Program-made: the position numbers and the translations under genes
Notes under the pieces: model-generated
The model's database searches: none
The model's input: only the letters and a program-made list of their open reading frames with translations
Told to the model about the DNA's origin: nothing
Part shown: positions 17,789 to 53,820 of the stretch, piece by piece
How positions within the stretch are numbered: the stretch's first letter is position 1
How the letters are laid out: every line of letters starts with the position of its first letter
DNA from: an uncultured Candidatus Saccharibacteria bacterium
Lineage (GTDB): Bacteria > Patescibacteriota > Saccharimonadia > Saccharimonadales > Saccharimonadaceae
DNA: 64,000 nucleotides
Assembly: GCA_946406665.1 (NCBI GenBank)
Contig: CAMJLE010000002.1
Coordinates: forward strand, 1,200-65,199
Direction of reading: 5' to 3'

Positions 17789-19672
17789 GTGAAAAAGTTT
17801 TTGAAGAAGCTCAGCTTGAGGCAACGCTATCTTTTATGCTCAGCAGTTTTTCTTTTTGTGACCGCACTGTTACTCACCTGGTTCCTCGAATATCGTTATT
17901 TTTTAGGCAATATGTCGGGCACGTGGGAGTTTGTATTTGGTAGATTTCAGATTTATCTATTTAATACGTTCTTGATGTGGCTAATGCTCATTTTTATCTG
18001 GGGCATATTGGGCTCACCAATTGCCGCGACTGGCGTATCCTGGGTGTTAATTTCGATTTTGACATATATACATATCAATAAATATTACTCACGTCAGACG
18101 CCTCTTTTGCCAGAAGATTTTCAGCTAGCTAGCCAAGCTACGACTTTGACGAAATTCGTGGACTACGGCTCGATTACGCGATTAGTTATAGCCTGCCTGT
18201 TGATGATTTTTCTCACTGCACTTTTCTATAGGTTTTGGGCGAAAAAACTTCACCTAAAGAGAACTTGGAAGACTCATTCATTTGCACAGAAGCACGCTAT
18301 TGCTATGCGGTTATTAATCGTAGTAGTAGCAGGTGGCGCATTTTTCTTCTGTACCGATTTCATTCGCCATCACGACGGCTCCCGCTACGAAGACGTTCCA
18401 TTTCTGAACACTACTTTCACGGCCTGGAATCAAAATCGAAACTATACGGAAAATGGTTTTATCGTAGGATTCTTATACAATTTTCAGAAGCTTCAACTCG
18501 AGGAGCCTGATGTTTATTCCGAGAATAAGATTCGTTCCATCAAATCAAAATACGATGCTAAAGCCGATGAAGAGAATCTCAATCGTAAAGATTTAGCAAA
18601 GGACGATATTAATGTTGTAGTAATATTAAACGAGTCGTTCTTTGACCCGAACGTTGAGTTTAATGGCGAAAAATTCGAGGACTATTACCCACATACTGGG
18701 GGTGATATATTGCCAAACTTGCACGAGATTCAGAAGAACTATCCGAGTGGACTAATGTATTCGCTCGATTACGGCGGAGGTACAGCAAATATCGAATTCG
18801 AAACGCTCACGAGCATGACGAATTACTGGGTGAATACCGTCCCATACACTGCCTTAGTACCAAAAGCTGGGCAAATTCCTTCGATTGCACAAATGCTAAA
18901 AACAAAAGGCTACGCAACGACCGCAATTCACCCCTTCAATGGTGGCATGTACAAAAGAAATATCTCGCTTGCAAATGAGGGCTTCGATACTTTTATCACC
19001 GAGAATGAGATGGATTACAAGGACCACGATGGCAACTCTGAGTATATAAATGACCGCTCGGCGTATCGCCAGGTGCTAAAAGTACTAAAAGAGAGCGATC
19101 AGAAACAGATGATTGGACTGATTACGATGCAGAACCATACGCCATATAACGCTGAAAACTACGAGAAAACCCAATTCGCCGTGACAAACGACGACATTGA
19201 AGATCAAAGAAAGTCCGACATTGCGATATATTACCAAAGCTTGCATAATTCTGATCAGTATTTTGGCGAATTCATCGACGAAATTAATAAGTTAGACGAA
19301 AAAGTAGTTATACTATTCTTCGGCGATCATGCGGCTGGCCTGTTCGATAATGTCAATTCGCACGAGTCTAAGCAGGTACGCGATTTGGCGCGTGTCACGC
19401 CCTACTTTGTTTATTCGAACTACGATTCCGGTTTCCGAGGAAAGCAATCATTGCCAACCACTACGCCAAACTGCATGGTTAATACGATGCTGAATGGCCT
19501 AAACTGGCAAAAGGATTCATTATATTATATGGTAGATCAGGTTTGCGAGAATGAGCCAATACTAGCGGCTAGCTATATGGAGGGGCGCGAAGTGCGCATG
19601 GCGGACGTAATGGACGATTACGAACTCGTTACTTACGATATCTTAGGCGGCAAAAAGTATTGGACAAAATAA
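17789..19672 (+). CDS. LTA synthase/phosphoglycerol-transferase family sulfatase-fold membrane protein
   Basis: 627 aa with a GTG start. About 5 N-terminal TMs precede an extracellular sulfatase-like domain (VVVILNESFFDP..., FFGDHAAG). Confidence 0.65.
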   Translation: MKKFLKKLSLRQRYLLCSAVFLFVTALLLTWFLEYRYFLGNMSGTWEFVFGRFQIYLFNTFLMWLMLIFIWGILGSPIAATGVSWVLISILTYIHINKYYSRQTPLLPEDFQLASQATTLTKFVDYGSITRLVIACLLMIFLTALFYRFWAKKLHLKRTWKTHSFAQKHAIAMRLLIVVVAGGAFFFCTDFIRHHDGSRYEDVPFLNTTFTAWNQNRNYTENGFIVGFLYNFQKLQLEEPDVYSENKIRSIKSKYDAKADEENLNRKDLAKDDINVVVILNESFFDPNVEFNGEKFEDYYPHTGGDILPNLHEIQKNYPSGLMYSLDYGGGTANIEFETLTSMTNYWVNTVPYTALVPKAGQIPSIAQMLKTKGYATTAIHPFNGGMYKRNISLANEGFDTFITENEMDYKDHDGNSEYINDRSAYRQVLKVLKESDQKQMIGLITMQNHTPYNAENYEKTQFAVTNDDIEDQRKSDIAIYYQSLHNSDQYFGEFIDEINKLDEKVVILFFGDHAAGLFDNVNSHESKQVRDLARVTPYFVYSNYDSGFRGKQSLPTTTPNCMVNTMLNGLNWQKDSLYYMVDQVCENEPILAASYMEGREVRMADVMDDYELVTYDILGGKKYWTK

Positions 19673-19700
19673 ATAATACCCCTTTCGGGGTATTATTTAT
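19672..19700. terminator. Bidirectional intrinsic terminator
   Basis: AATAATACCCC-TTTC-GGGGTATTATT hairpin between convergent genes. Confidence 0.7.
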
Positions 19701-44396: not shown

Positions 44397-44921
44397 TCAT
44401 GGCGCTTTGACTGCCTTAGCGATGACGCTAACAATTTCTTGGCGGGACATTTTTTCGGGGTTGCGGAAACGCGCAAGCGGGATGTTGGCGGCTTTAAAAA
44501 TGCGCTCGACTTCCGCGTCGCGCTCGGCGCGAGATTTGCTGTCGTGCGAGGCATCGTCGAGCTCAATGGCACAGACTGGCTTGCCGGTTTCCTTGCTGAG
44601 CAAAACGTAGTCGACGGACTTGCCGTTAATGTGACGGAAGGCAGCGTTCCAATTCTGGCCTTTGACTTTGTGGTTTAGCAAGGCGGAAAGATGAACTTGT
44701 GGAATGATATACCATTTACCGCCGAGCATGTCGTTGAGTTGCTTGAAGAATTCGTTTTCGCGTTGCGTCATAATGTAGCTCTTGGCGAAATAACGGTAGG
44801 TAGATTTTTTGATTTCTTCTTCGTCGTCGGTTTGCTTTACGGCGAAGAGCTTGCGCGAAGCGAAGTCCGCTGCGACGAGAATGACTAGAGCGATGATGAT
44901 AATGATGTATGTTTTATCCAT
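44397..44921 (-). CDS. DUF2726 (restriction-endonuclease-like fold) protein with N-terminal TM
   Basis: YIIPQVHLSALL...SVDYVLL...VCAIELDDASHD...RDAEVERIF. Confidence 0.65.
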   Translation of the reverse strand: MDKTYIIIIIALVILVAADFASRKLFAVKQTDDEEEIKKSTYRYFAKSYIMTQRENEFFKQLNDMLGGKWYIIPQVHLSALLNHKVKGQNWNAAFRHINGKSVDYVLLSKETGKPVCAIELDDASHDSKSRAERDAEVERIFKAANIPLARFRNPEKMSRQEIVSVIAKAVKAP

Positions 44922-44938
44922 GATTCTATATTATCTCC

Positions 44939-46036
44939 TTATTTATCGCTTTTTCTACGATTGCAATCTCGGCAAAGCATTTGGCAGTTTTCAGCAACAG
45001 TTTTACCGCCTTGGCTCCATGGCGTAATATGGTCGGCTTCCATCTCGTCGATTTCGAAGTGTTGGTTGCATTCAGAGCAAATTCCCCGCTGGCGTTCGTA
45101 AGCCTCGCGCTTCATGTTGTCTGTAAATGCACGAATGCTTAAATGACGTTCGTCGCCACATAACAGGTATTCGTAGATGCCCTTCTTGGCAGTAACATCC
45201 TCGTCCTGCATGAGGCGGATGATTTCTTTTTCCATTTTCTGAGCATCGTAGGAATAATTATGGTATTTATTATAGAAGTCGCCCCATTCGAGGCCTTTCA
45301 TTTCTTTGCGATAATTCGGGAACAGCATTTGTGCCCATGCGATGACGGTCTGGAAATATTGCCAAAGTTCGGAGGCATTATCGTCGAACTGGTGCTTAGA
45401 CATATATTCTTCAATGTTGTCGTCGGAAATCCATTTCAAAGCAGATTGTAAATAGTCCTGGCGAATCGGCGAACCATTCATGTATTTTTCGGCTAGTCCA
45501 TAGGCGGCGCAGCCAGTTTTGCTAAAGTGGCGCTTAGCGTCAGTTAGCCATGGGCCGGCATAGACCGCGTTGCGAAGTTCCTGATCGGTAAGCTTTTCGC
45601 CGGCGATATTGATAGTCTTGAACCATTCGAGTTTTTCGCTGTCTGTACCGTCGCAAATGTAGATATATAAATCGTAGTTTTCAATTTGTGCACGTTCATC
45701 AGAAGTGAGGCTGTGAAAATATTTGTTGTTGATGGAGAAATCGCCCTGCACGTATTGGCAGAAAGAAATCGTACGCTGCTGGCCGTCGAGAATTTCGTAA
45801 CCAGTCACCTCCCCACTGTCATTTTTAACGACGGACCAATACATAACATTGAGCGGGAATTCTTTGCGAATAGTATCAATTACGGCATTTCGCTGAGCAT
45901 CTTTATATACGAATTCGCGTTGGAATTTTGGGCGGATGTCGAGCCTACCGCCGTAGCCAACAACGCCTTCTTCATTGCCGTCTTTATAGCCATCAAATAC
46001 ATCTTTGATTTTGATTTTTTGAAGCTCAATTTTCAT
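44939..46036 (-). CDS. DUF262 (ParB-like, DGQQR) + C-terminal HNH nuclease, GmrSD-related
   Basis: ILDGQQRTISF in the N-domain and CSECN...ADHITPWSQGG...NCQMLCRDCNRRKSDK in the HNH domain. Overlaps the methyltransferase stop by 11 nt. Confidence 0.8.
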   Translation of the reverse strand: MKIELQKIKIKDVFDGYKDGNEEGVVGYGGRLDIRPKFQREFVYKDAQRNAVIDTIRKEFPLNVMYWSVVKNDSGEVTGYEILDGQQRTISFCQYVQGDFSINNKYFHSLTSDERAQIENYDLYIYICDGTDSEKLEWFKTINIAGEKLTDQELRNAVYAGPWLTDAKRHFSKTGCAAYGLAEKYMNGSPIRQDYLQSALKWISDDNIEEYMSKHQFDDNASELWQYFQTVIAWAQMLFPNYRKEMKGLEWGDFYNKYHNYSYDAQKMEKEIIRLMQDEDVTAKKGIYEYLLCGDERHLSIRAFTDNMKREAYERQRGICSECNQHFEIDEMEADHITPWSQGGKTVAENCQMLCRDCNRRKSDK

Positions 46037-47093
46037 GGATTCTCCTTTTTATAAAAATACGCGAAAATACAACTACTGGAAGATTATTATCGTCCAATAG
46101 ATATACATTTTGTAATCGCCAAGTTTTATTGTATGCTTTATACTTTTTTATAGTTTCTTCAGGGGGTGGCGTGAAAAAAGAACAATCATTAAACACCCAA
46201 TTCGTGTCGCCGCTTCTTCCAATTATCTCAAACTGGTCAGGATCATAACTATTTATAAAGCTGTCTGGTACGCCCATGTAACCATAATAATCATCAGGAA
46301 TATCGGCTATCCTATCTATATTAATTGCATTAAAGTTACCGTATTTAGGATAATCACTCGGATTATAGTGTTTATAGAGTATTAGCCCTTCATGCCGCTT
46401 TTCAATATCTAGATTCGTAAACCATATGACGTTCCCGAATTTTTTCGTGGTTCCATCGGGGCGCATAAACTCTTTTATGTGGTTATATCCAAGCCAAACT
46501 TTATTATTAGCAATTAATGGAAATATTTCTTGATAATGGAGTTTATTAGAGTCGCCGATTGTTAAGAACTTCTTATCATATTCTATAAGTTGTAGGATAT
46601 AGTCTGGGAATAGGCTAAAGGGCGGGTTAGTAACGACAATATCAGCCTCTTTAAGATACTCGATTGATTCTTCACTTCTAAAGTCACCGTCGCCGTCAAG
46701 TATTGTAAGGTTATTATCATTGCTTTTAAGCAGAAGTTCGATATCCGAGAGATCTGTTGCTCCATCGCCATTTAGATCTGGGACTTCGGTTATTTCTATT
46801 TTGTAGGGTAATTTCTCGTCTTTATGGAATAACGGCAAATCATTAAATTCCGTATAGCTAACTGGCGATCCGGCATAGCACGTACAGATTAGCTTTTTTA
46901 AGCCAAGATGATTAAAATTCATAGCAAAATATTTGAAGAAATTACTCTCAAATGGATCGTCGCAATTGCAAAATACGGTTTTACCTCTGAAGTGTTCTTT
47001 ATAATGGCATAATTCGTTTTCTATGTCTCTTAGAAAGGTATAGTGCTCATCGTCTTTTGCTACTTTTGCCTTTCCTAGGCTAGTGTTGGCTAT
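46026..47093 (-). CDS. N6-adenine DNA methyltransferase, EcoRI-methylase-like family; apparent ATA start
   Basis: VVTNPPFSL motif IV. The frame is open upstream of the track's ATG (46922): (ATA)ANTSLGKAKVAKDDEHYTFLRDIENELCHYKEHFRGKTVFCNCDDPFESNFFKYFAMNFNHLGLKK matches my memory of the family N-terminus. AGGAGG lies 4 nt before ATA (complement of 47091-93) and an in-frame TAA lies at 47109-11. Confidence 0.7.
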   Translation of the reverse strand: MANTSLGKAKVAKDDEHYTFLRDIENELCHYKEHFRGKTVFCNCDDPFESNFFKYFAMNFNHLGLKKLICTCYAGSPVSYTEFNDLPLFHKDEKLPYKIEITEVPDLNGDGATDLSDIELLLKSNDNNLTILDGDGDFRSEESIEYLKEADIVVTNPPFSLFPDYILQLIEYDKKFLTIGDSNKLHYQEIFPLIANNKVWLGYNHIKEFMRPDGTTKKFGNVIWFTNLDIEKRHEGLILYKHYNPSDYPKYGNFNAINIDRIADIPDDYYGYMGVPDSFINSYDPDQFEIIGRSGDTNWVFNDCSFFTPPPEETIKKYKAYNKTWRLQNVYLLDDNNLPVVVFSRIFIKRRIHEN

Positions 47094-47124
47094 GGCGCCT
47101 CCTAACTCTTAGCGCCACAACTTC

Positions 47125-47349
47125 AAAAAGAAAATAAGACACCTTGCGATGTCTTGTTCAATATATGTTGCCGATTACATCATGAATCCGGGAACGTAAC
47201 ACCGCATGATGTCTTAAATCAATTTCTGCACTTAGACTGAAACAGCCTAACCGGAGCGATGAACCTTCCCGGATTTACGGGTTGTTTCAAAACACTGCCG
47301 CAAGTGCAGAATTGTAGCCTAAGTGCAAATTATTAAATTGATTTAAGAC
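47125..47349 (-). ncRNA. Structured ~225-nt leader/ncRNA upstream of the methyltransferase, with own promoter and terminator
   Basis: Minus-strand TGATATAAT (complement of 47356-64). A 15-bp helix (47211-25 with 47335-49) plus a 9-bp helix (47227-35 with 47319-27) enclose a multi-stem domain. The terminator is AAGACATC-GCAA-GGTGTCTT plus ATTTTCTTTTT (47125-55). The G-U pairs fit only the minus-strand RNA. Confidence 0.45.
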
Positions 47350-47554
47350 AATTTAATTATATCACTTAGGGACAGGGGTTGAGAAGTGTTCTGTTTGAAC
47401 TCATGCTTTTATGCCGTTCTGAGTTCTCCTATACTAAAAAGGCGCCGCAAGGTGTCTTAAATCAATGGTTTAAACTGACATTGAAGTTCATGAGAGCTCG
47501 CAGGGCTTCAATAAACAGGATTCTAGATAACTAGACACTCTGAGGAAGATTGTC

Positions 47555-47614
47555 ATGGTCATCACAGTTCGACTTTGGATTGTGGAATTCAGAATAAGAA
47601 TCAGGTTTGTTTAG
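47555..47614 (+). CDS. Cassette copy 1 small ORF, 19 aa (MVITVRLWIVEFRIRIRFV)
   Basis: SD GAGGAAG lies 6 nt upstream. There is codon-level conservation with copy 3. Confidence 0.5.
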   Translation: MVITVRLWIVEFRIRIRFV

Positions 47615-47618
47615 AGAT

Positions 47619-47688
47619 GAAAAATAACCCATAGGGGTTATCTTTCATCAAAACCATTTCGAGCGTAGTTTCTAGAGCTGCGCTCAAT
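47619..47688 (-). ncRNA. Predicted antisense sRNA of cassette copy 1
   Basis: Minus-strand TGCTATAAT (complement of 47695-703), hairpin GAGCGCAGCTCTAGAAACTACGCTC, and terminator ATAACCCC-TAT-GGGTTAT plus TTTTT. Confidence 0.4.
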
Positions 47689-47871
47689 AAGTATATTATA
47701 GCAAAAGCATTAAACTTACGCTTTTGCTTCTAGTTAATTAGGCATATTGTCTTTGAGGGTACGTGTTTTGCCCTATTGAATGTTTTAGCCATAAGCCATT
47801 GGAGGCCAGCTCGCTGGGGCTTCAATGAACGGTGATTCTAGATAGCTAGAGGTCCCGGAGAAAGTCTTTGC

Positions 47872-47952
47872 ATGAGCGTTCGGATTACCATCATGGGCGT
47901 AAGTGTGGAGTTTGGAATTCGGTTTCCGAAATTCAAAAAAATTCGTCGCTAA
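47872..47952 (+). CDS. Cassette copy 2 small ORF, 26 aa (MSVRITIMGVSVEFGIRFPKFKKIRR)
   Basis: SD GGAGAAAG lies upstream. The C-terminus IRF.K.KKIRR parallels copy 3 (IRLVRKPKKVSR). Confidence 0.5.
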   Translation: MSVRITIMGVSVEFGIRFPKFKKIRR

Positions 47953-48006
47953 ATAAATAACGACGAACCAAACACGTCGAGTGTAGTTTCTAGAACTGCG
48001 CTCGTT
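47934..48006 (-). ncRNA. Predicted antisense sRNA of cassette copy 2
   Basis: Minus-strand TGATATAAT (complement of 48013-21), hairpin GAGCGCAGTTCTAGAAACTACACTC, and terminator TTCGTCG..CGACGAA plus TTTTTTT, which overlaps the last sORF codons. Confidence 0.4.
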
Positions 48007-48175
48007 GAATATATTATATCAAATAATTGAACTCATGCTTTTATGAGTGAAATCTAAACATTAATATGTGAACGGGTTATTTTGGCATCGCGTGAGGCTC
48101 GGAGAGAACTCTCGCTCGCAGGAGCCTCACTGAACGGTGATTCTAGATAGCTAGACGCTCCTGAGAAAGATTCAG

Positions 48176-48259
48176 ATGTCACTCACTTTCAGGATTTGGA
48201 TTGTGGAGTTGAGGTCCGAAATTCGCTTGGTGCGGAAGCCAAAAAAAGTTAGCCGCTAG
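48176..48259 (+). CDS. Cassette copy 3 small ORF, 27 aa (MSLTFRIWIVELRSEIRLVRKPKKVSR)
   Basis: GAGAAAG lies 6 nt upstream. The stop codon sits inside the terminator hairpin of the antisense RNA. Confidence 0.5.
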   Translation: MSLTFRIWIVELRSEIRLVRKPKKVSR

Positions 48260-48307
48260 CGGCTAACCAAACCCAAACAGAGCGTAGTTTCTAGAGCTGC
48301 GCTCGTT
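48241..48307 (-). ncRNA. Predicted antisense sRNA of cassette copy 3
   Basis: Minus-strand TGATATAAT (complement of 48314-22, abutting the permease stop codon), hairpin GAGCGCAGCTCTAGAAACTACGCTC, and terminator GTTAGCCGCTAGCGGCTAAC plus TTTTTTT. Confidence 0.4.
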
Positions 48308-48324
48308 GGATATATTATATCACG

Positions 48325-49104
48325 CTACTCGACATTCACGCCTTTACTAAACAGTTTCTTACCACCGAAGTACAAGCCGGTTGTCAGCACGAGATACAAT
48401 GCATCAGTTACGGCAATGAGCGTGCGGTAGGTCGAGAAGCCGATTGCAACATCCATCGCGTCGCCAAACATGGCTTTGACACTATCGTCAAAAATGCCAA
48501 TTCCGTAAATGATGCCGAGCAGCAAGCTCTGCAGAGTGAAATATAACACTATGCCAAGAACCGCCGAACGAATCATGCGGCCATTATTTGCGCGATGACC
48601 AACGGTAAGGCTAAACATGCCAACATTCACGGCGTAAACTACTTCCAAGACAGCCGTAACGAGAATCCCGAGAACAATAAATGTCATATCGCCATCTTTG
48701 AAGACCGAGCGAAAATACTCATACATATCATTGTTCCAAAATGCAATAAAGAAACAAGTAATCACGACGGCGAGAGATAATAAAATGGCACAGAGTCCAG
48801 AAAGAACTTTGCTATCGTAGAGCGTATTTTTGCTTACTGGTAGCGTATGCGTCAAATATGCTTCGTCTTTATAGAAACTTTGGCGGAAACGTTCCCATAT
48901 TCGAATTGCCGAATTAATGACAGCATTAGCGAAAGCTGCAATCGTAAAACCACGCAAAATGCCAAAGACGAGATCACCAATTACGGAGCCCGTAAAGTTG
49001 CTGGAAATGCGAGTGAGGATAGATAGAATAGCCGTAATAGCAAAAATTACAACCATGTTACGATTCATCCACAGGAAGTCGTATTTAATTAGCTTTTTTA
49101 GCAT
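48325..49104 (-). CDS. ABC transporter permease-like membrane protein
   Basis: About 6 TMs. Start taken at MLKKLIKYDF (ATG 49104), overlapping the ATPase gene's end by 20 nt. Confidence 0.6.
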   Translation of the reverse strand: MLKKLIKYDFLWMNRNMVVIFAITAILSILTRISSNFTGSVIGDLVFGILRGFTIAAFANAVINSAIRIWERFRQSFYKDEAYLTHTLPVSKNTLYDSKVLSGLCAILLSLAVVITCFFIAFWNNDMYEYFRSVFKDGDMTFIVLGILVTAVLEVVYAVNVGMFSLTVGHRANNGRMIRSAVLGIVLYFTLQSLLLGIIYGIGIFDDSVKAMFGDAMDVAIGFSTYRTLIAVTDALYLVLTTGLYFGGKKLFSKGVNVE

Positions 49105-49792
49105 GGAACATCCTCCTAAATATTTCATCGATTGATGCTTTTTCTTTACTGCGAAGTTTGTCAGCATCGCTAGTTAGCGCAATTTTACCTTTATCGATGA
49201 AGATTACCTCATCGAGGATGCGCTCGATATCAGATATTAGATGCGTGGATATAATTACACTGGAGCCTTCTTTGAAATTGGACAAGATTGTATCGAGAAT
49301 ATAATCGCGCGTGGCAGGGTCGACGCCGCCAAGCGGCTCGTCCAAAATATACAGATCCGCGGCGCGCGACATTACCAAAATCAGCTGTAGTTTTTCTTGC
49401 ATACCCTTAGACATTTTGGATATTTTTGAGTCTGCATCGAGATCTAAATCTTCGAGCAATTTATATGCGCGATCCAGGTCGAAATCCTCATAGAAATCTT
49501 CGAACATTTTAATCGCTTGGCTGACCCGCATATTTTTGTCCAAATATGTGCGTTCAGGCAAGTACGAAATGTGCGCCTTCGATGGGGCGCCGATAGCCTT
49601 CCTTTTGAATAAAATCGTGCCGTCGGTTGGTGTGAGTAAATCGTTAATTAACTTTATTAGCGTTGTTTTGCCGGCACCATTTTTGCCGAGCAGACCGTAA
49701 ATTTTGCCGGGCTCAATTTTGAGACTAACGTCGTCGAGTACGGTTTTACGGTCGAATGTTTTCGTGAGATGTTTGCATTCTAGCAAAGTCAT
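49085..49792 (-). CDS. ABC transporter ATP-binding protein
   Basis: Walker A GKNGAGKTT, signature MSKGMQEKL, Walker B LYILDEP. Confidence 0.9.
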   Translation of the reverse strand: MTLLECKHLTKTFDRKTVLDDVSLKIEPGKIYGLLGKNGAGKTTLIKLINDLLTPTDGTILFKRKAIGAPSKAHISYLPERTYLDKNMRVSQAIKMFEDFYEDFDLDRAYKLLEDLDLDADSKISKMSKGMQEKLQLILVMSRAADLYILDEPLGGVDPATRDYILDTILSNFKEGSSVIISTHLISDIERILDEVIFIDKGKIALTSDADKLRSKEKASIDEIFRRMFHAKKAN

Positions 49793-52618: not shown

Positions 52619-52818
52619 CCTCGCGAGTGGGAACAAAAAAGTGGGCTTGGTTGCTACCCGACGGCTGCAAGCCGCCCTTCTTCTCTTTATCGTATTTACG
52701 CAATTCTACCTTTTCTGCCCATCTAGTAATTGTATCTTTAACTTCCGCGCAACAAAAGCGTGAGTTTATTCCGACCGACGCGATGCTCCCGCTTGGCGCT
52801 AGGTGTTATAATACAGAT

Positions 52819-53820
52819 ATGGCAATCGAGAGGGTGATTGATACTAGTCTCCACGAAGACGACAGCGATGAGCGAGCCGTTGAGTTTTCGCTACGCCCCA
52901 CAAACTTCAATGAATATATCGGCCAGCGACGCCTGAAAACTAACTTAAAGCTAGCTATCGATGCGGCAAAGAAACGCGGCGACGTGATGGATCACGTATT
53001 GCTATTCGGGCCTCCAGGACTTGGAAAAACGACTATGGCTGGCGTAATTGCACATGAAATGGGGGCGAATTTTCGGGCTACTTCTGCTCCATCGATTGAA
53101 AAAGCAGGCGATTTAGCAAGTATTCTAACAAACTTAGCCGATGGTGACATATTATTTATTGACGAAATTCATCGCTTGCGGCGTGCGGTTGAGGAAATCC
53201 TCTATTCGGCAATGGAGGATTATAAGCTTGATATCGTGATCGGTAAAGGACCGGCTGCGCGAAGCGTCAAGCTCGACCTACCGCGCTTTACATTAATCGG
53301 TGCCACTACGCAGGCCGGAAATCTCGCTGGACCGCTGCGTGACCGTTTTGGGCATTCCTATAGATTAGAGTATTATGCAAATGATGATATCCAACAAATA
53401 ATAGAACGCTCGGCAAGTATTCTAAACACGTCGATTGACTCAACGGCCTCTAAGCTGCTGGCGGAACGTTCGCGTTTGACGCCACGCATCGCAAACAGAC
53501 TGCTAAAGCGTGTACGCGATTACGCCGACGTAAATGGCGATGGAATAATTGACGAGCCGATTGCGAGGAGTGCTCTAAAAATGTTGGAAATCGACGATTT
53601 AGGTCTGGATCCGGCTGATCGCAATATGCTCACTTTAATGTACGAAAAATATGGCGACAGGCCGGTTGGGCTAAATACAATTGCGGCTTTAACTGGCGAT
53701 GAGGCTTCGACGATCGAGGATTATTTGGAACCTTTCTTGGTGCAAATGGGAATGATCCAACGCACGCCACGCGGCCGCATCGTAACGGACGTAGCGAAGA
53801 ATCATCTTGGCCTCGTTTAG
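52819..53820 (+). CDS. ruvB: Holliday junction branch migration helicase RuvB
   Basis: MAIERV..., LLFGPPGLGKTT, ILFIDEIHRL. TGTTATAAT at 52804-12 lies 6 nt before the ATG, so the mRNA is possibly leaderless. The track ORF's upstream extension is rejected. Confidence 0.95.
   Translation: MAIERVIDTSLHEDDSDERAVEFSLRPTNFNEYIGQRRLKTNLKLAIDAAKKRGDVMDHVLLFGPPGLGKTTMAGVIAHEMGANFRATSAPSIEKAGDLASILTNLADGDILFIDEIHRLRRAVEEILYSAMEDYKLDIVIGKGPAARSVKLDLPRFTLIGATTQAGNLAGPLRDRFGHSYRLEYYANDDIQQIIERSASILNTSIDSTASKLLAERSRLTPRIANRLLKRVRDYADVNGDGIIDEPIARSALKMLEIDDLGLDPADRNMLTLMYEKYGDRPVGLNTIAALTGDEASTIEDYLEPFLVQMGMIQRTPRGRIVTDVAKNHLGLV

Follow-up and report, generated by a model that had tools for sequence, protein, structure and literature searches.

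What does a densely structured stretch of DNA, lying directly in front of a methyltransferase gene, contribute to the operon that follows it? A preliminary description of the window (the whole 64-kb stretch analysed here) had proposed that it encodes, on the minus strand, a structured RNA that runs from a promoter to a terminator and serves as a methyltransferase leader. Every piece described for the flagged stretch is present on the minus strand. As judged by comparison with related loci, the predicted RNA is a divergent, genus-specific and enlarged subtype of an uncatalogued leader-RNA family of ultrasmall Saccharibacteria-type bacteria. Its features, and those of its surroundings, are the following.

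47356 to 47385, minus strand: putative promoter, with a -35-like TTCTCA (47385-47380), an 18-nt spacer and the extended -10 box TGATATAAT (47364-47356)
47335 to 47349, minus strand: 5' strand of closing helix P1, GUCUUAAAUCAAUUU (47349-47335), starting GUCUUAA (family hallmark GUCUWA); probable 5' end of the RNA
47316 to 47327, minus strand: 5' strand of helix P2, UGCACUUAGGCU, forming 12 bp with 47238-47227
47239 to 47288, minus strand: inner core, in which P3 joins GAAACAACC (47288-47280) to GGCUGUUUC (47247-47239)
47256 to 47275, minus strand: 5' strand of the pseudoknot (B'B), AAUCCGGGAAGGUUCAUCGC, counterpart of the family core segment GGCACCGCA
47227 to 47238, minus strand: 3' strand of P2, AGUCUAAGUGCA
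47211 to 47225, minus strand: 3' strand of P1, AAAUUGAUUUAAGAC (family hallmark UWAGAC), its last three bases, GAC, common to hairpin T1
47198 to 47213, minus strand: T1, hairpin of the family terminator type, GACAUC-AUGC-GGUGUU, directly adjoining P1
47185 to 47205, minus strand: 3' strand of the pseudoknot (DD'), GCGGUGUUACGUUCCCGGAUU, recognised by inverted repeat, duplex and alignment
47177 to 47212, minus strand: alternative hairpin H, ACAUCAUG (47212-47205) with CAUGAUGU (47184-47177)
47125 to 47155, minus strand: T2, putative intrinsic terminator, AAGACAUC-GCAA-GGUGUCUU (47155-47136) with the U-run AUUUUCUUUUU (47135-47125)
47093 to 47117, minus strand: hairpin holding the SD sequence, UGGCGC (47117-47112) with GCGCCA (47098-47093), 100% paired in 14 relatives
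46026 to 47093, minus strand: gene for an EcoRI-like N6-adenine DNA methyltransferase (Pfam PF13651, E = 3.5e-118)
47435 to 47475, minus strand: upstream orphan copy of the 3' module of the family, ..AUUGAUUUAAGACACC-UUGC-GGCGCC-UUUUU (covariance model, 17.7 bits)

The minus strand folds with a minimum free energy (MFE) of -75.3 kcal/mol (z = -5.2), and none of 200 shuffled sequences folds as well. The plus strand reaches z = -5.3 and, since the two values are nearly equal, the z-score does not assign the strand. The assignment to the minus strand is instead based on the promoter, the U-runs, the comparison with the family, and G-U pairs that vary between GC and GU in relatives; the last point upholds an argument already made in the preliminary description. 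The promoter matches the consensus at 10 of 12 positions, TG included. G47349 is preceded by the 6-nt TAAATT and, further upstream, by the extended -10 box, and this TGnTATAAT-N6-G spacing is identical in all 14 members of the subtype. The pieces, the z-score and the 13 full-length relatives described below bear out a structured minus-strand leader, from which we infer transcription of an RNA that is probably ~225 nt long, with its 5' end at or beside G47349. No small ORF with an SD sequence had been noticed in it, and the minus strand inside the RNA indeed holds no ORF of at least 20 aa starting with ATG, GTG or TTG. A promoter search between the U-run (47125) and the methyltransferase start (47093) gave no match to a second promoter, for which there is also no room.

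The RNA is closed by two helices. P1 has the 15 bp proposed for the 5'-end helix (47349-47335 with 47225-47211), and a repeat search returned it as an inverted repeat of 16 nt with 100% complementarity. The helix that continues it, P2, had been described as 9 bp; it is present and is longer, with 12 bp (47327-47316 with 47238-47227). In the genus alignment, two neighbouring P2 pairs exchange GC/GU for GU/GC, so this pairing is possible only as RNA on the minus strand. Further inward, the hairpins GAAACA.CC/GG.UGUUUC (P3) and CCCG/CGGG were found as described, with P3 enclosing the latter as a local hairpin together with the 5' strand of the pseudoknot. Inspection of the alignment by eye shows matched changes of P3 in relatives (GAAUA.. 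with ..UAUUC); a column count scores some P3 pairs as unpaired because of an indel. Four elements do not vary within the subtype and thus give no covariation information: P1, the greater part of P2, hairpin H and the stem of T1. The helices had been expected to be conserved in homologous leaders, and this is the case in the 13 full-length relatives, where compensatory pairs occur in the pseudoknot.

This pseudoknot departs from the earlier picture, in which 47275-47256 and 47205-47185 were read as parts of local hairpins. The two strands covary as one long-range duplex of 18 bp (-27.6 kcal/mol). CAUCGC (47261-47256) pairs with GCGGUG (47205-47200), and 12 further pairs connect 47275-47263 with 47197-47185. 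Because the 3' strand lies outside P1, the structure is a true pseudoknot. Among 14 relatives, 96-98% of cells are paired and four pairs carry compensatory double changes, which, the relatives being close kin, may represent few independent events. As in the family, where the consensus GGCACCGCA follows an A-rich run, the core segment can pair with both the loop and the 3' half of the first hairpin after P1; the core sequence has diverged.

Several predicted pairings compete for the same bases. Hairpin H, which encloses the 3' strand of the pseudoknot, cannot coexist with the pseudoknot or with T1; its sequence does not vary among 14 relatives, so that covariation speaks neither for it nor against it. 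The 5' half and loop of T2 can alternatively pair with 47206-47199, and this is possible in 14 of 14 relatives, changed loop bases included. Changes in this cross-pairing of T1 and T2 are one-sided only, and it exists partly because the two modules nearly duplicate a single palindromic hairpin. The unconstrained nested MFE structure has the cross-pairing and lacks T2, whereas T2 forms when the pseudoknot strands are withheld from folding. The energies of the states are close (-74.2 versus -55.8 - 27.6 kcal/mol, with the pseudoknot penalty not yet added), and another near-isoenergetic predicted fold contains T2. Mutually exclusive pairings are genuine features of the RNA, but the particular switch that the preliminary description proposed, between CUGCACUU and a strand of P2, is unsupported: the segment is invariant, its single variant CUGCACUC loses a pair without compensation, and there is no covariation.

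Termination appears to have moved within this RNA. The covariance model of the family aligns T1 to the family terminator; however, T1 is weak (-3.9 kcal/mol as a duplex) and is followed by ACGUUCCC in place of a U-run. In the canonical arrangement, the GAC of P1 is also part of a GACACC-loop-GGUGUC hairpin, and a U-run comes directly after this hairpin. Here the U-run comes only after the second module (47155-47125), and the RNA was accordingly filed as a variant subtype and not as a canonical member. T2 is a second copy of the family module 'UAAGAC + hairpin', with a stem of 8 bp and a GCAA loop. It is 100% paired in 14 relatives, one pair being altered on both sides (UA, CG, UG), and it is probably the working terminator of this subtype, replacing T1. 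The terminator with its U-run, the AGGAGG (47103-47098) and the ATA start (47093-47091) are all as first described, and a direct-repeat search showed that the three modules of the type 'hairpin + CTTAAATCAAT' are real.

Downstream of T2, 31 nt separate the U-run from the start codon, so that a same-strand gene with an SD sequence follows shortly after the terminator, as is usual in the family. In the SD hairpin, AGGAGG occupies the loop and the stem edge, and the stem ends on the first base of the start codon. No ATG, GTG or TTG occurs before codon 58 of the methyltransferase, while the PF13651 match begins at residue 6 and covers profile positions 2-344 of 345. At the start position, relatives have ATA GCN (11 of 14) or ACG (3 of 14). 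The operon continues with a DUF262-HNH nuclease and a DUF2726 gene. Taken together, the leader, the SD hairpin and the non-AUG start suggest a deliberately very low expression of the restriction-modification (R-M) genes.

The 13 full-length relatives of the subtype, at 84-94% identity, always stand ahead of a methyltransferase. Leader, SD hairpin and a start other than AUG (ATA or ACG) are retained, and at least four unrelated methyltransferase genes come after these elements. The conserved block extends unbroken over the SD hairpin as far as the second codon of whichever methyltransferase follows, with the start codon, 120 nt from the inverted repeat, as the swap junction. Read from these alignments, the locus is a slot in which different DNA-methylase genes are exchanged behind one conserved leader, and such a fusion marks a swap site for defence genes.

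Of 151 genomes sampled from the bacterial family, 49 (about a third) carry the wider leader family, with 1-10 copies each. Three features mark its members: a -10 box, a closing helix with GUCUWA and UWAGAC, and pairing with covariation between a segment of the core and the 3' half of the adjoining terminator. The -10 box is of the sigma-70 type, usually TGnTATAAT, and ends 6 nt before the first G of the RNA, here as elsewhere; a -10-like box at equal spacing was present in 13 of the 13 printed members that had been found by the covariance model alone. In most members an SD sequence and a start codon lie within about 10-90 nt downstream on the same strand. The genes concerned are many unrelated accessory genes, including restriction enzymes, methylases and small membrane proteins, which argues against the R-M-specific control suggested at first.

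The covariance model was built solely from canonical members of other genera, and its calibration is rough. With filters off, its best match in the window is 47349-47192 on the minus strand (27.4 bits, E = 4e-5), over the full length of the model (positions 1-126). P1, with GUCUWA on its 5' side and UWAGAC on its 3' side, and then P2 further inward are both aligned to the P1 and P2 of the model. This is the lowest-scoring of all accepted matches; relatives of the subtype score 28-30 bits, and canonical members 60-127 bits.

In 66 family sequences P1, P2 and P4 are 88-97% paired, and nearly all pairs have changed on both sides (for P1, 97% paired, 10 of 11 pairs). The core-to-terminator pairing, which is not part of the model, is 98-100% paired in the same sequences, with double changes in 5 of 10 pairs. 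It averages 9.5 contiguous bp and was found in 39 of 39 members, compared with 5.2 in shuffles; its mean energy is -17.7 kcal/mol, compared with -8.6 kcal/mol for the terminator hairpin formed locally. The long-range helix extends one covarying pair further than the local hairpin in 37 of 39 members; the local hairpin is itself less conserved, its outer pair failing in 10 of 66 members. The bases of the terminator loop also covary with the distant segment. For canonical members, MAFFT with RNAalifold returned the core-to-terminator helix only; the nested helices were supplied by hand and checked by counting.

The window RNA shares with the canonical family the -10 box 6 nt before G1, P1, the stacked P2, the GAC-sharing hairpin, the core strand that pairs with the region 3' of P1, and the SD sequence and gene that follow. 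It differs in several respects. Firstly, its inner core is unrelated in sequence, and the J2/1 motif GUGAAUGG is missing. Secondly, its pseudoknot has 18 bp, compared with about 10 in the canonical family, where the 3' half of the terminator hairpin serves as the 3' strand of this pairing. Thirdly, it has an extra ~70 nt with a second terminator module, and its first hairpin lacks a U-run. Finally, its downstream genes are always methyltransferases, unlike those of the family at large.

We consider that the RNA acts as a cis-acting attenuator leader that keeps read-through low or conditional, with a probability of about 0.6. P1 and P2 would form a long closing stem around the core, from which the strand 47275-47256 reaches out to pair with 47205-47185. 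T1 having lost its U-run, termination would take place 45 nt further on, at T2 (47155-47125). When the pseudoknot is formed, 47206-47199 would be tied up, T2 could form, and most transcripts would stop at 47125, giving a short RNA. Without the pseudoknot, 47206-47199 could pair with the 5' half and loop of T2; T2 would then be blocked, and RNA polymerase would read through into the methyltransferase, DUF262-HNH nuclease and DUF2726 genes. Together with the SD-holding hairpin and the AUA start, the terminator would keep R-M expression low or conditional in spite of a strong promoter. That the alternative pairings switch in vivo, and which state is ON, is inferred from the predicted structures. 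The long-range helix of canonical members extends exactly to the U-run and could itself terminate rather than antiterminate, so the polarity of the switch may be either way.

The strongest competitor is an unlikely one, namely a constitutive damper that does not switch, and that leaves a stable RNA as its by-product. The pseudoknot would then be architectural, providing a compact, nuclease-resistant 3' region or, in canonical members, the terminating helix itself, and termination at a large, fixed fraction would allow a constant trickle of read-through to the R-M genes. The long-range helix of the family, which is much stronger and more conserved than the local terminator hairpin and adjoins the U-run, would fit this well, as would the three layers of weak expression that are hard-wired at the locus (terminator, SD hairpin, AUA/ACG start). 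Moreover, the window subtype offers a natural experiment: the U-run after T1 was lost, but the helix was kept and lengthened, which indicates that the helix has a role of its own, independent of termination at the T1 site. A fixed damper would nevertheless have no need of near-isoenergetic predicted states, or of conserved mutually exclusive pairings (core segment A with B, H versus pseudoknot, T1 with T2 versus T2 alone).

An RNA of this kind also invites comparison with riboswitches, and the preliminary description had called it riboswitch-like. In that case the core inside P2 would be an aptamer, and a metabolite or second messenger would choose between the pseudoknot and the alternative fold. 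The closing helix does overlap the expression platform, as in the pbuE adenine ON switch, whose closing helix and terminator overlap, the former with its 3' strand and the latter with its 5' strand. A long-range pseudoknot lies beside the platform in the ZTP (pfl) and fluoride (crcB) classes, and mutually exclusive states of similar energy are predicted here as in all three. In addition, the commonest subtype of the family has the conserved unpaired stretches AAAACGGCACCGCAUAAGCA and GUGAAUGG, and the downstream genes are as heterogeneous as those of second-messenger riboswitches. However, the most conserved 'loop' is accounted for by pairing with the terminator and not by a pocket, and the window subtype, like other subtypes, lacks the junction motif GUGAAUGG as well as the inner core. 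In contrast to the three known classes, the leader has no Rfam match, no known ligand and no conserved pocket, and the family conserves the platform, which is universal, rather than the aptamer. The regulated genes (R-M enzymes, small membrane proteins) suggest no metabolite, and nothing at the locus points to a ligand. We therefore regard a metabolite riboswitch as improbable.

The Rfam searches agree with the expectation that no known riboswitch class would be matched. Rfam 15 at the gathering score returned four tRNAs only in the window, and nothing meaningful at E <= 10 for 46900-48400; ten canonical loci of the family likewise gave tRNAs only at the gathering score. A blastn search of phage records with a canonical member found nothing, and the full-text literature searched on riboswitches and on non-coding or structured RNAs of Saccharibacteria and Patescibacteria yielded no description of the leader RNA.

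Less probable still is that the RNA is an independent trans-acting sRNA (for example, a regulator or protein sponge) that stands before the methyltransferase by coincidence. It has the strong predicted promoter, the terminator of its own, the lack of an ORF and the compact conserved fold that such a gene would have, but the conserved block continues through the SD hairpin into the methyltransferase codons, the downstream operon has no promoter of its own, family members keep their position 10-90 nt ahead of a same-strand start codon, and no conserved single-stranded seed was seen across the family. A DNA-level element (the termini of a miniature transposable element, a site of recombination, or operators for a protein with GACAC/GTGTC half-sites) is very improbable: the perfect 16-bp inverted repeat, the three copies of the TTAAGACA-hairpin module, the gene-swap site and the equally good folding of the plus strand could all be cited for it, but pairs are kept through G-U and GC/GU swaps that are A-C mismatches on the other strand, terminator loop bases covary with a distant segment, distances to the -10 box and U-run are fixed, the swap junction is 120 nt from the repeat, no flanking duplication was seen, and neither the RNA nor the upstream cassettes have a second copy in their own genome.

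The attenuator reading places the leader among known systems of transcriptional control. Like classical attenuators, from the trp leader with its chained hairpins (1:2/2:3/3:4) to protein-dependent antitermination of the PyrR or LicT type, it has a promoter-proximal terminator ahead of an operon, and complementary segments (A', A, B, C, D) that overlap in a chain and would decide the fate of the terminator. Unlike these, it has no leader peptide, no regulator gene linked to it and no site recognisable as RAT, PyrR or TRAP. R-M systems can be controlled by C-protein operators, antisense RNAs and methylase autoregulation; like these elements, the leader would limit or time expression, and it stands directly before the M gene of an operon in which the nuclease follows the methyltransferase. 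It differs from them in that it would act in cis at the RNA level, without a C-protein gene, and in that the family also heads genes outside R-M systems. A pseudoknot that engages the terminator by its 3' half and extends to the U-run is a feature of this family, and we know of no described riboswitch platform with such an arrangement. The window subtype adds a plausible two-terminator logic.

Ultrasmall Saccharibacteria-type bacteria have few recognisable regulators and, to our knowledge, no riboswitch-like RNAs have been described in them. The leader family, carried by about one in three of the genomes sampled, would represent a major point of control for their accessory genome. More speculatively, and with the odds against it, the family may be a new class of regulatory RNA, whose terminator-3'-strand pseudoknot, either free of a sensor or dependent on a factor, gives these epibiotic bacteria a master gate over genes acquired horizontally, such as those for R-M enzymes and small membrane proteins. 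One signal or protein (for example, host contact or phage attack) might then release a regulon of mobile and defence genes, and the window leader might double as a homology handle for the exchange of methyltransferase operons.

Further matches to the covariance model were seen in the window. A weak one at 19657-19698 on the plus strand is an ordinary terminator, unrelated to the family, and a plus-strand match at 47052-47159 is an artefact of the palindromic T2. Another is the orphan module at 47435-47475, with which the third of the upstream cassettes closes; an arm of this module could pair with the 5' strand of P1 in the leader, to which it is complementary.

The ABC-2-type permease gene and the gene for the EcoRI-like methyltransferase are separated by a stretch of 1.2 kb that has no long ORF. 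Three tandem cassettes, each 305-318 nt long, fill its distal 0.93 kb, and the proximal 260 nt, on the minus strand, is the leader RNA region, where all the elements listed in the preliminary description are found. The operon behind it encodes the methylase, an overlapping DUF262-HNH nuclease and a DUF2726 protein, in that order; such a nuclease is an unusual restriction partner for an EcoRI-like methylase.

Features of the locus and of the leader RNA (window positions)
48325-49167, minus: ABC-2-type permease gene, the upstream flank of the 1.2-kb stretch
-10 ending at 47356, minus: promoter TTCTCA-18 nt-TGATATAAT, from sequence
47349-47335 (GUCUUAAAUCAAUUU) with 47225-47211, minus: P1, 15 bp, perfect pairing
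47327-47316 (UGCACUUAGGCU) with 47238-47227, minus: P2, 12 bp, by pairing
47288-47280 with 47247-47239, minus: inner helix, by pairing
47213-47198, minus: T1 hairpin GACAUC-AUGC-GGUGUU, from sequence
47212-47205 with 47184-47177, minus: alternative local hairpin H, ACAUCAUG/CAUGAUGU, by pairing
47155-47125, minus: T2, 8-bp GCAA-loop terminator with AUUUUCUUUUU, from sequence
47117-47093, minus: GC-rich hairpin holding AGGAGG, from sequence
47093-47091, minus: methyltransferase start ATA, from sequence
46026-47093, minus: EcoRI-like methyltransferase (Pfam PF13651, E = 3.5e-118)
44939-46036, minus: GmrSD_N (DUF262) and HNH nuclease gene, overlapped by the methylase gene
44397-44921, minus: DUF2726 gene, 3' of the nuclease gene

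Six bases separate the end of TGATATAAT (47356) from GUCUUAAAUCAAUUU. The minus strand folds to -75.3 kcal/mol (z = -5.2), far more stably than shuffled sequence, and the plus strand folds equally well (z = -5.3), so the strand must be called on evidence other than the z-score. The window leader has no match in Rfam.

A DNA search of 200 genomes from the same bacterial family returned a 92% identical copy of the leader in one congener, as well as short matches to its first 60 nt in other genera. The matched loci share a -10 box, six bases, GUCUWA, a variable interior and then UWAGAC, to which a hairpin GACACC-loop-GGUGUC and a U-run are fused. When a pattern of these anchors alone was run against 401 genomes, it matched 46 sites, spread over 37 genomes and 21 genera; the reversed pattern matched none. 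Ten pattern-matched loci gave nothing except tRNAs with Rfam 15. A covariance model was then built from 24 canonical members, in which the U-run directly follows the terminator, with P1, P2 and the inner helix P4 entered by hand. Of 151 genomes sampled from the bacterial family, 49 (36 of 95 genera) have the leader family by this model, with 1-10 copies each; the rest of the phylum yielded it in only a few genomes. Where a member was detected solely by the model, a -10-like box again stands at this spacing (13 of 13 printed). An alignment of 66 members gives 97% pairing for P1, with 10 of 11 pairs changed on both sides, and 88-97% for P2 and P4, where all pairs have changed on both sides. The genes behind other members encode a Tsp45I-type restriction enzyme, N4/N6 and C5 methylases, DUF4352 and OmpA-like proteins, and many small membrane proteins. 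Given this variety, the RNA is a leader for accessory genes in general and not a restriction-modification device as such. No description of the family was found in the full-text literature searched or in Rfam, and blastn with a canonical member matched no phage record.

The most conserved 'loop' of the core is an A-rich segment followed by GGCACCGCA (consensus). The core segment complements the terminator hairpin over its loop and 3' half, and the two sides change together: at least a dozen matched core/terminator variants occur, among them CACCGCG / CGCGGUG, CACCGUG / CACGGUG, CACCAUG / CAUGGUG, GGCAGCCAC / GUGGCUGUC and GACGCCGUGUAG / CUACACGGUGUC. Over 39 of 39 members the uninterrupted pairing has a mean length of 9.5 bp; shuffled cores give 5.2 bp. 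This pairing is also the RNAalifold consensus structure. In the 66-sequence alignment, whose model did not contain it, it is 98-100% paired, with double changes in five of ten pairs. In 37 of 39 members one further covarying pair (C-G, G-C or U-A) lies beyond the local hairpin, directly at the U-run, and the long helix is twice as stable as that hairpin (-17.7 versus -8.6 kcal/mol). An upstream segment, UGCGGU or CUAUGC, pairs with this core segment too, in its 3' part, and also covaries. Together, the core-terminator pairing and its upstream competitor indicate that the family is built on a chain of mutually exclusive pairings ending in a terminator.

The window carries an enlarged, genus-specific subtype of this leader. 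The model's best match in the whole window is 47349-47192 (minus), at full length, with 27.4 bits and E = 4e-5 under a shortened calibration; this score is significant, but lower than that of every canonical member. P1, P2 and T1 align to their family counterparts. Among 58 other genomes of the genus there are 13 full-length relatives and two at contig ends (84-94% identity), which, coming from one genus, form a shallow alignment. P1, most of P2, hairpin H and T1 are invariant in it. Within P2, GC/GU has been exchanged for GU/GC, a change workable only as minus-strand RNA. The sole long helix with compensatory changes is a pseudoknot missed in the preliminary description, in which AAUCCGGGAAGGUUCAUCGC (47275-47256) pairs with GCGGUGUUACGUUCCCGGAUU (47205-47185) over 18 pairs (duplex -27.6 kcal/mol). 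Double-sided changes affect four of these pairs, two of them going from A-U to G-C, and pairing is kept in 96-98% of cells. Since its 5' strand lies inside P1 and P2 and its 3' strand outside, it is the core-terminator pairing of the family, lengthened by 12 pairs; the final six of the 18, CAUCGC with GCGGUG, are what is left of the canonical pairing.

The defining departure of the subtype is that T1 has no U-run. The 'UAAGAC + hairpin' module occurs a second time as T2, which supplies a U-run 45 nt downstream. In canonical members the long helix touches the U-run and might itself terminate. In either case, the window subtype retained the helix and made it longer after loss of the adjacent U-run, which means that it does more than form that one terminator. 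Several long-P1 members (L047, L048, L056, L057) have an interrupted U-run after the terminator, e.g., GGUGUCCUAUUUUAU and GGUGUCCCUUAUUGUUUU, and look intermediate between the canonical form and the window subtype.

The conserved block extends past T2 through the SD hairpin and the first two codons, and then ends. Behind it, in the window, L018 and L073-L084, are at least four unrelated methyltransferase genes: EcoRI-like in eight genomes, Eco57I/TaqI-like in four, and two further types in one genome each. The SD hairpin is 100% paired in all 14, and the start reads ATA GCN in 11 and ACG in three; ATG, GTG or TTG is found at this position in none of the 14. Whatever the methylase type, the non-canonical start lies 4 nt after AGGAGG, at the foot of the conserved GC hairpin. 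In the window, the methylase matches the Pfam profile from position 2 at residue 6, which places ATA at the true N-terminus. The 31 nt from the T2 U-run to the methylase start have no place for a promoter-like site, so the operon would depend on read-through of T2; its expression would be further lowered by the SD-holding hairpin and the near-cognate start codon.

The start site, termination and switching of the leader are inferred here. The best nested fold (-74.2 kcal/mol) lacks the pseudoknot. It pairs the 3' half and loop of T1 (47206-47199) with the 5' half and loop of T2 (47153-47146), and UAAGACAUC (47216-47208) with the 3' half of T2, and T2 is consequently absent. With the pseudoknot strands removed, the remainder reaches -55.8 kcal/mol and has a clean T2 hairpin; once the -27.6 kcal/mol duplex is counted in, the pseudoknot state becomes competitive despite a pseudoknot penalty, and the two folds are predicted to be near-isoenergetic. 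In the polarity proposed here, a formed pseudoknot would leave T2 free to terminate; if it fails, 47206-47199 would act as an antiterminator. The T1-T2 cross-pairing is possible in 14 of 14 relatives, including those with T2 loops changed from GCAA to GCGU or GCAU, but counts as weak evidence, since the changes are one-sided only and the modules are near-copies.

A fixed damper whose pseudoknot is purely structural would account for a long helix this strong and conserved, but leaves several conserved alternative pairings unexplained. A metabolite riboswitch is unlikely, since what is conserved across subtypes is the platform and not the would-be aptamer. A trans-acting sRNA is also unlikely, as the conserved block runs unbroken to the translation start of any downstream gene. 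A DNA-level repeat or transposon end is ruled out by the G-U-mediated covariation, the single copy and a swap junction 120 nt from the repeat.

Each of the three cassettes (47385-48322) contains a TGnTATAATATA promoter-like box, a GAGCGCAG..CUACGCUC hairpin, a terminator and a second promoter-like site. No further copy was detected by DNA similarity in the genome itself, and one unit is found at a different locus in a congener (L028). An orphan copy of the 'UAAGAC + hairpin' module, the third after those of T1 and T2, closes the neighbouring third cassette (47475-47435, minus). This 3' module (AUUGAUUUAAGACACC-UUGC-GGCGCC-UUUUU) lies 100 nt upstream of the leader, scores 17.7 bits by the model and has an arm complementary to the 5' strand of P1; it suggests that family members were once duplicated in tandem or recombined with one another. 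In a congener (L018, G178:C9, 391-1524) the same leader directly and divergently adjoins ruvB, whereas in the window about 5 kb, holding the cassettes, a GntR-ABC transporter operon and a VWA protein, separate the two (window 52627-53820 on the ruvB side). By this comparison, the locus beside ruvB looks like an insertion hot spot.
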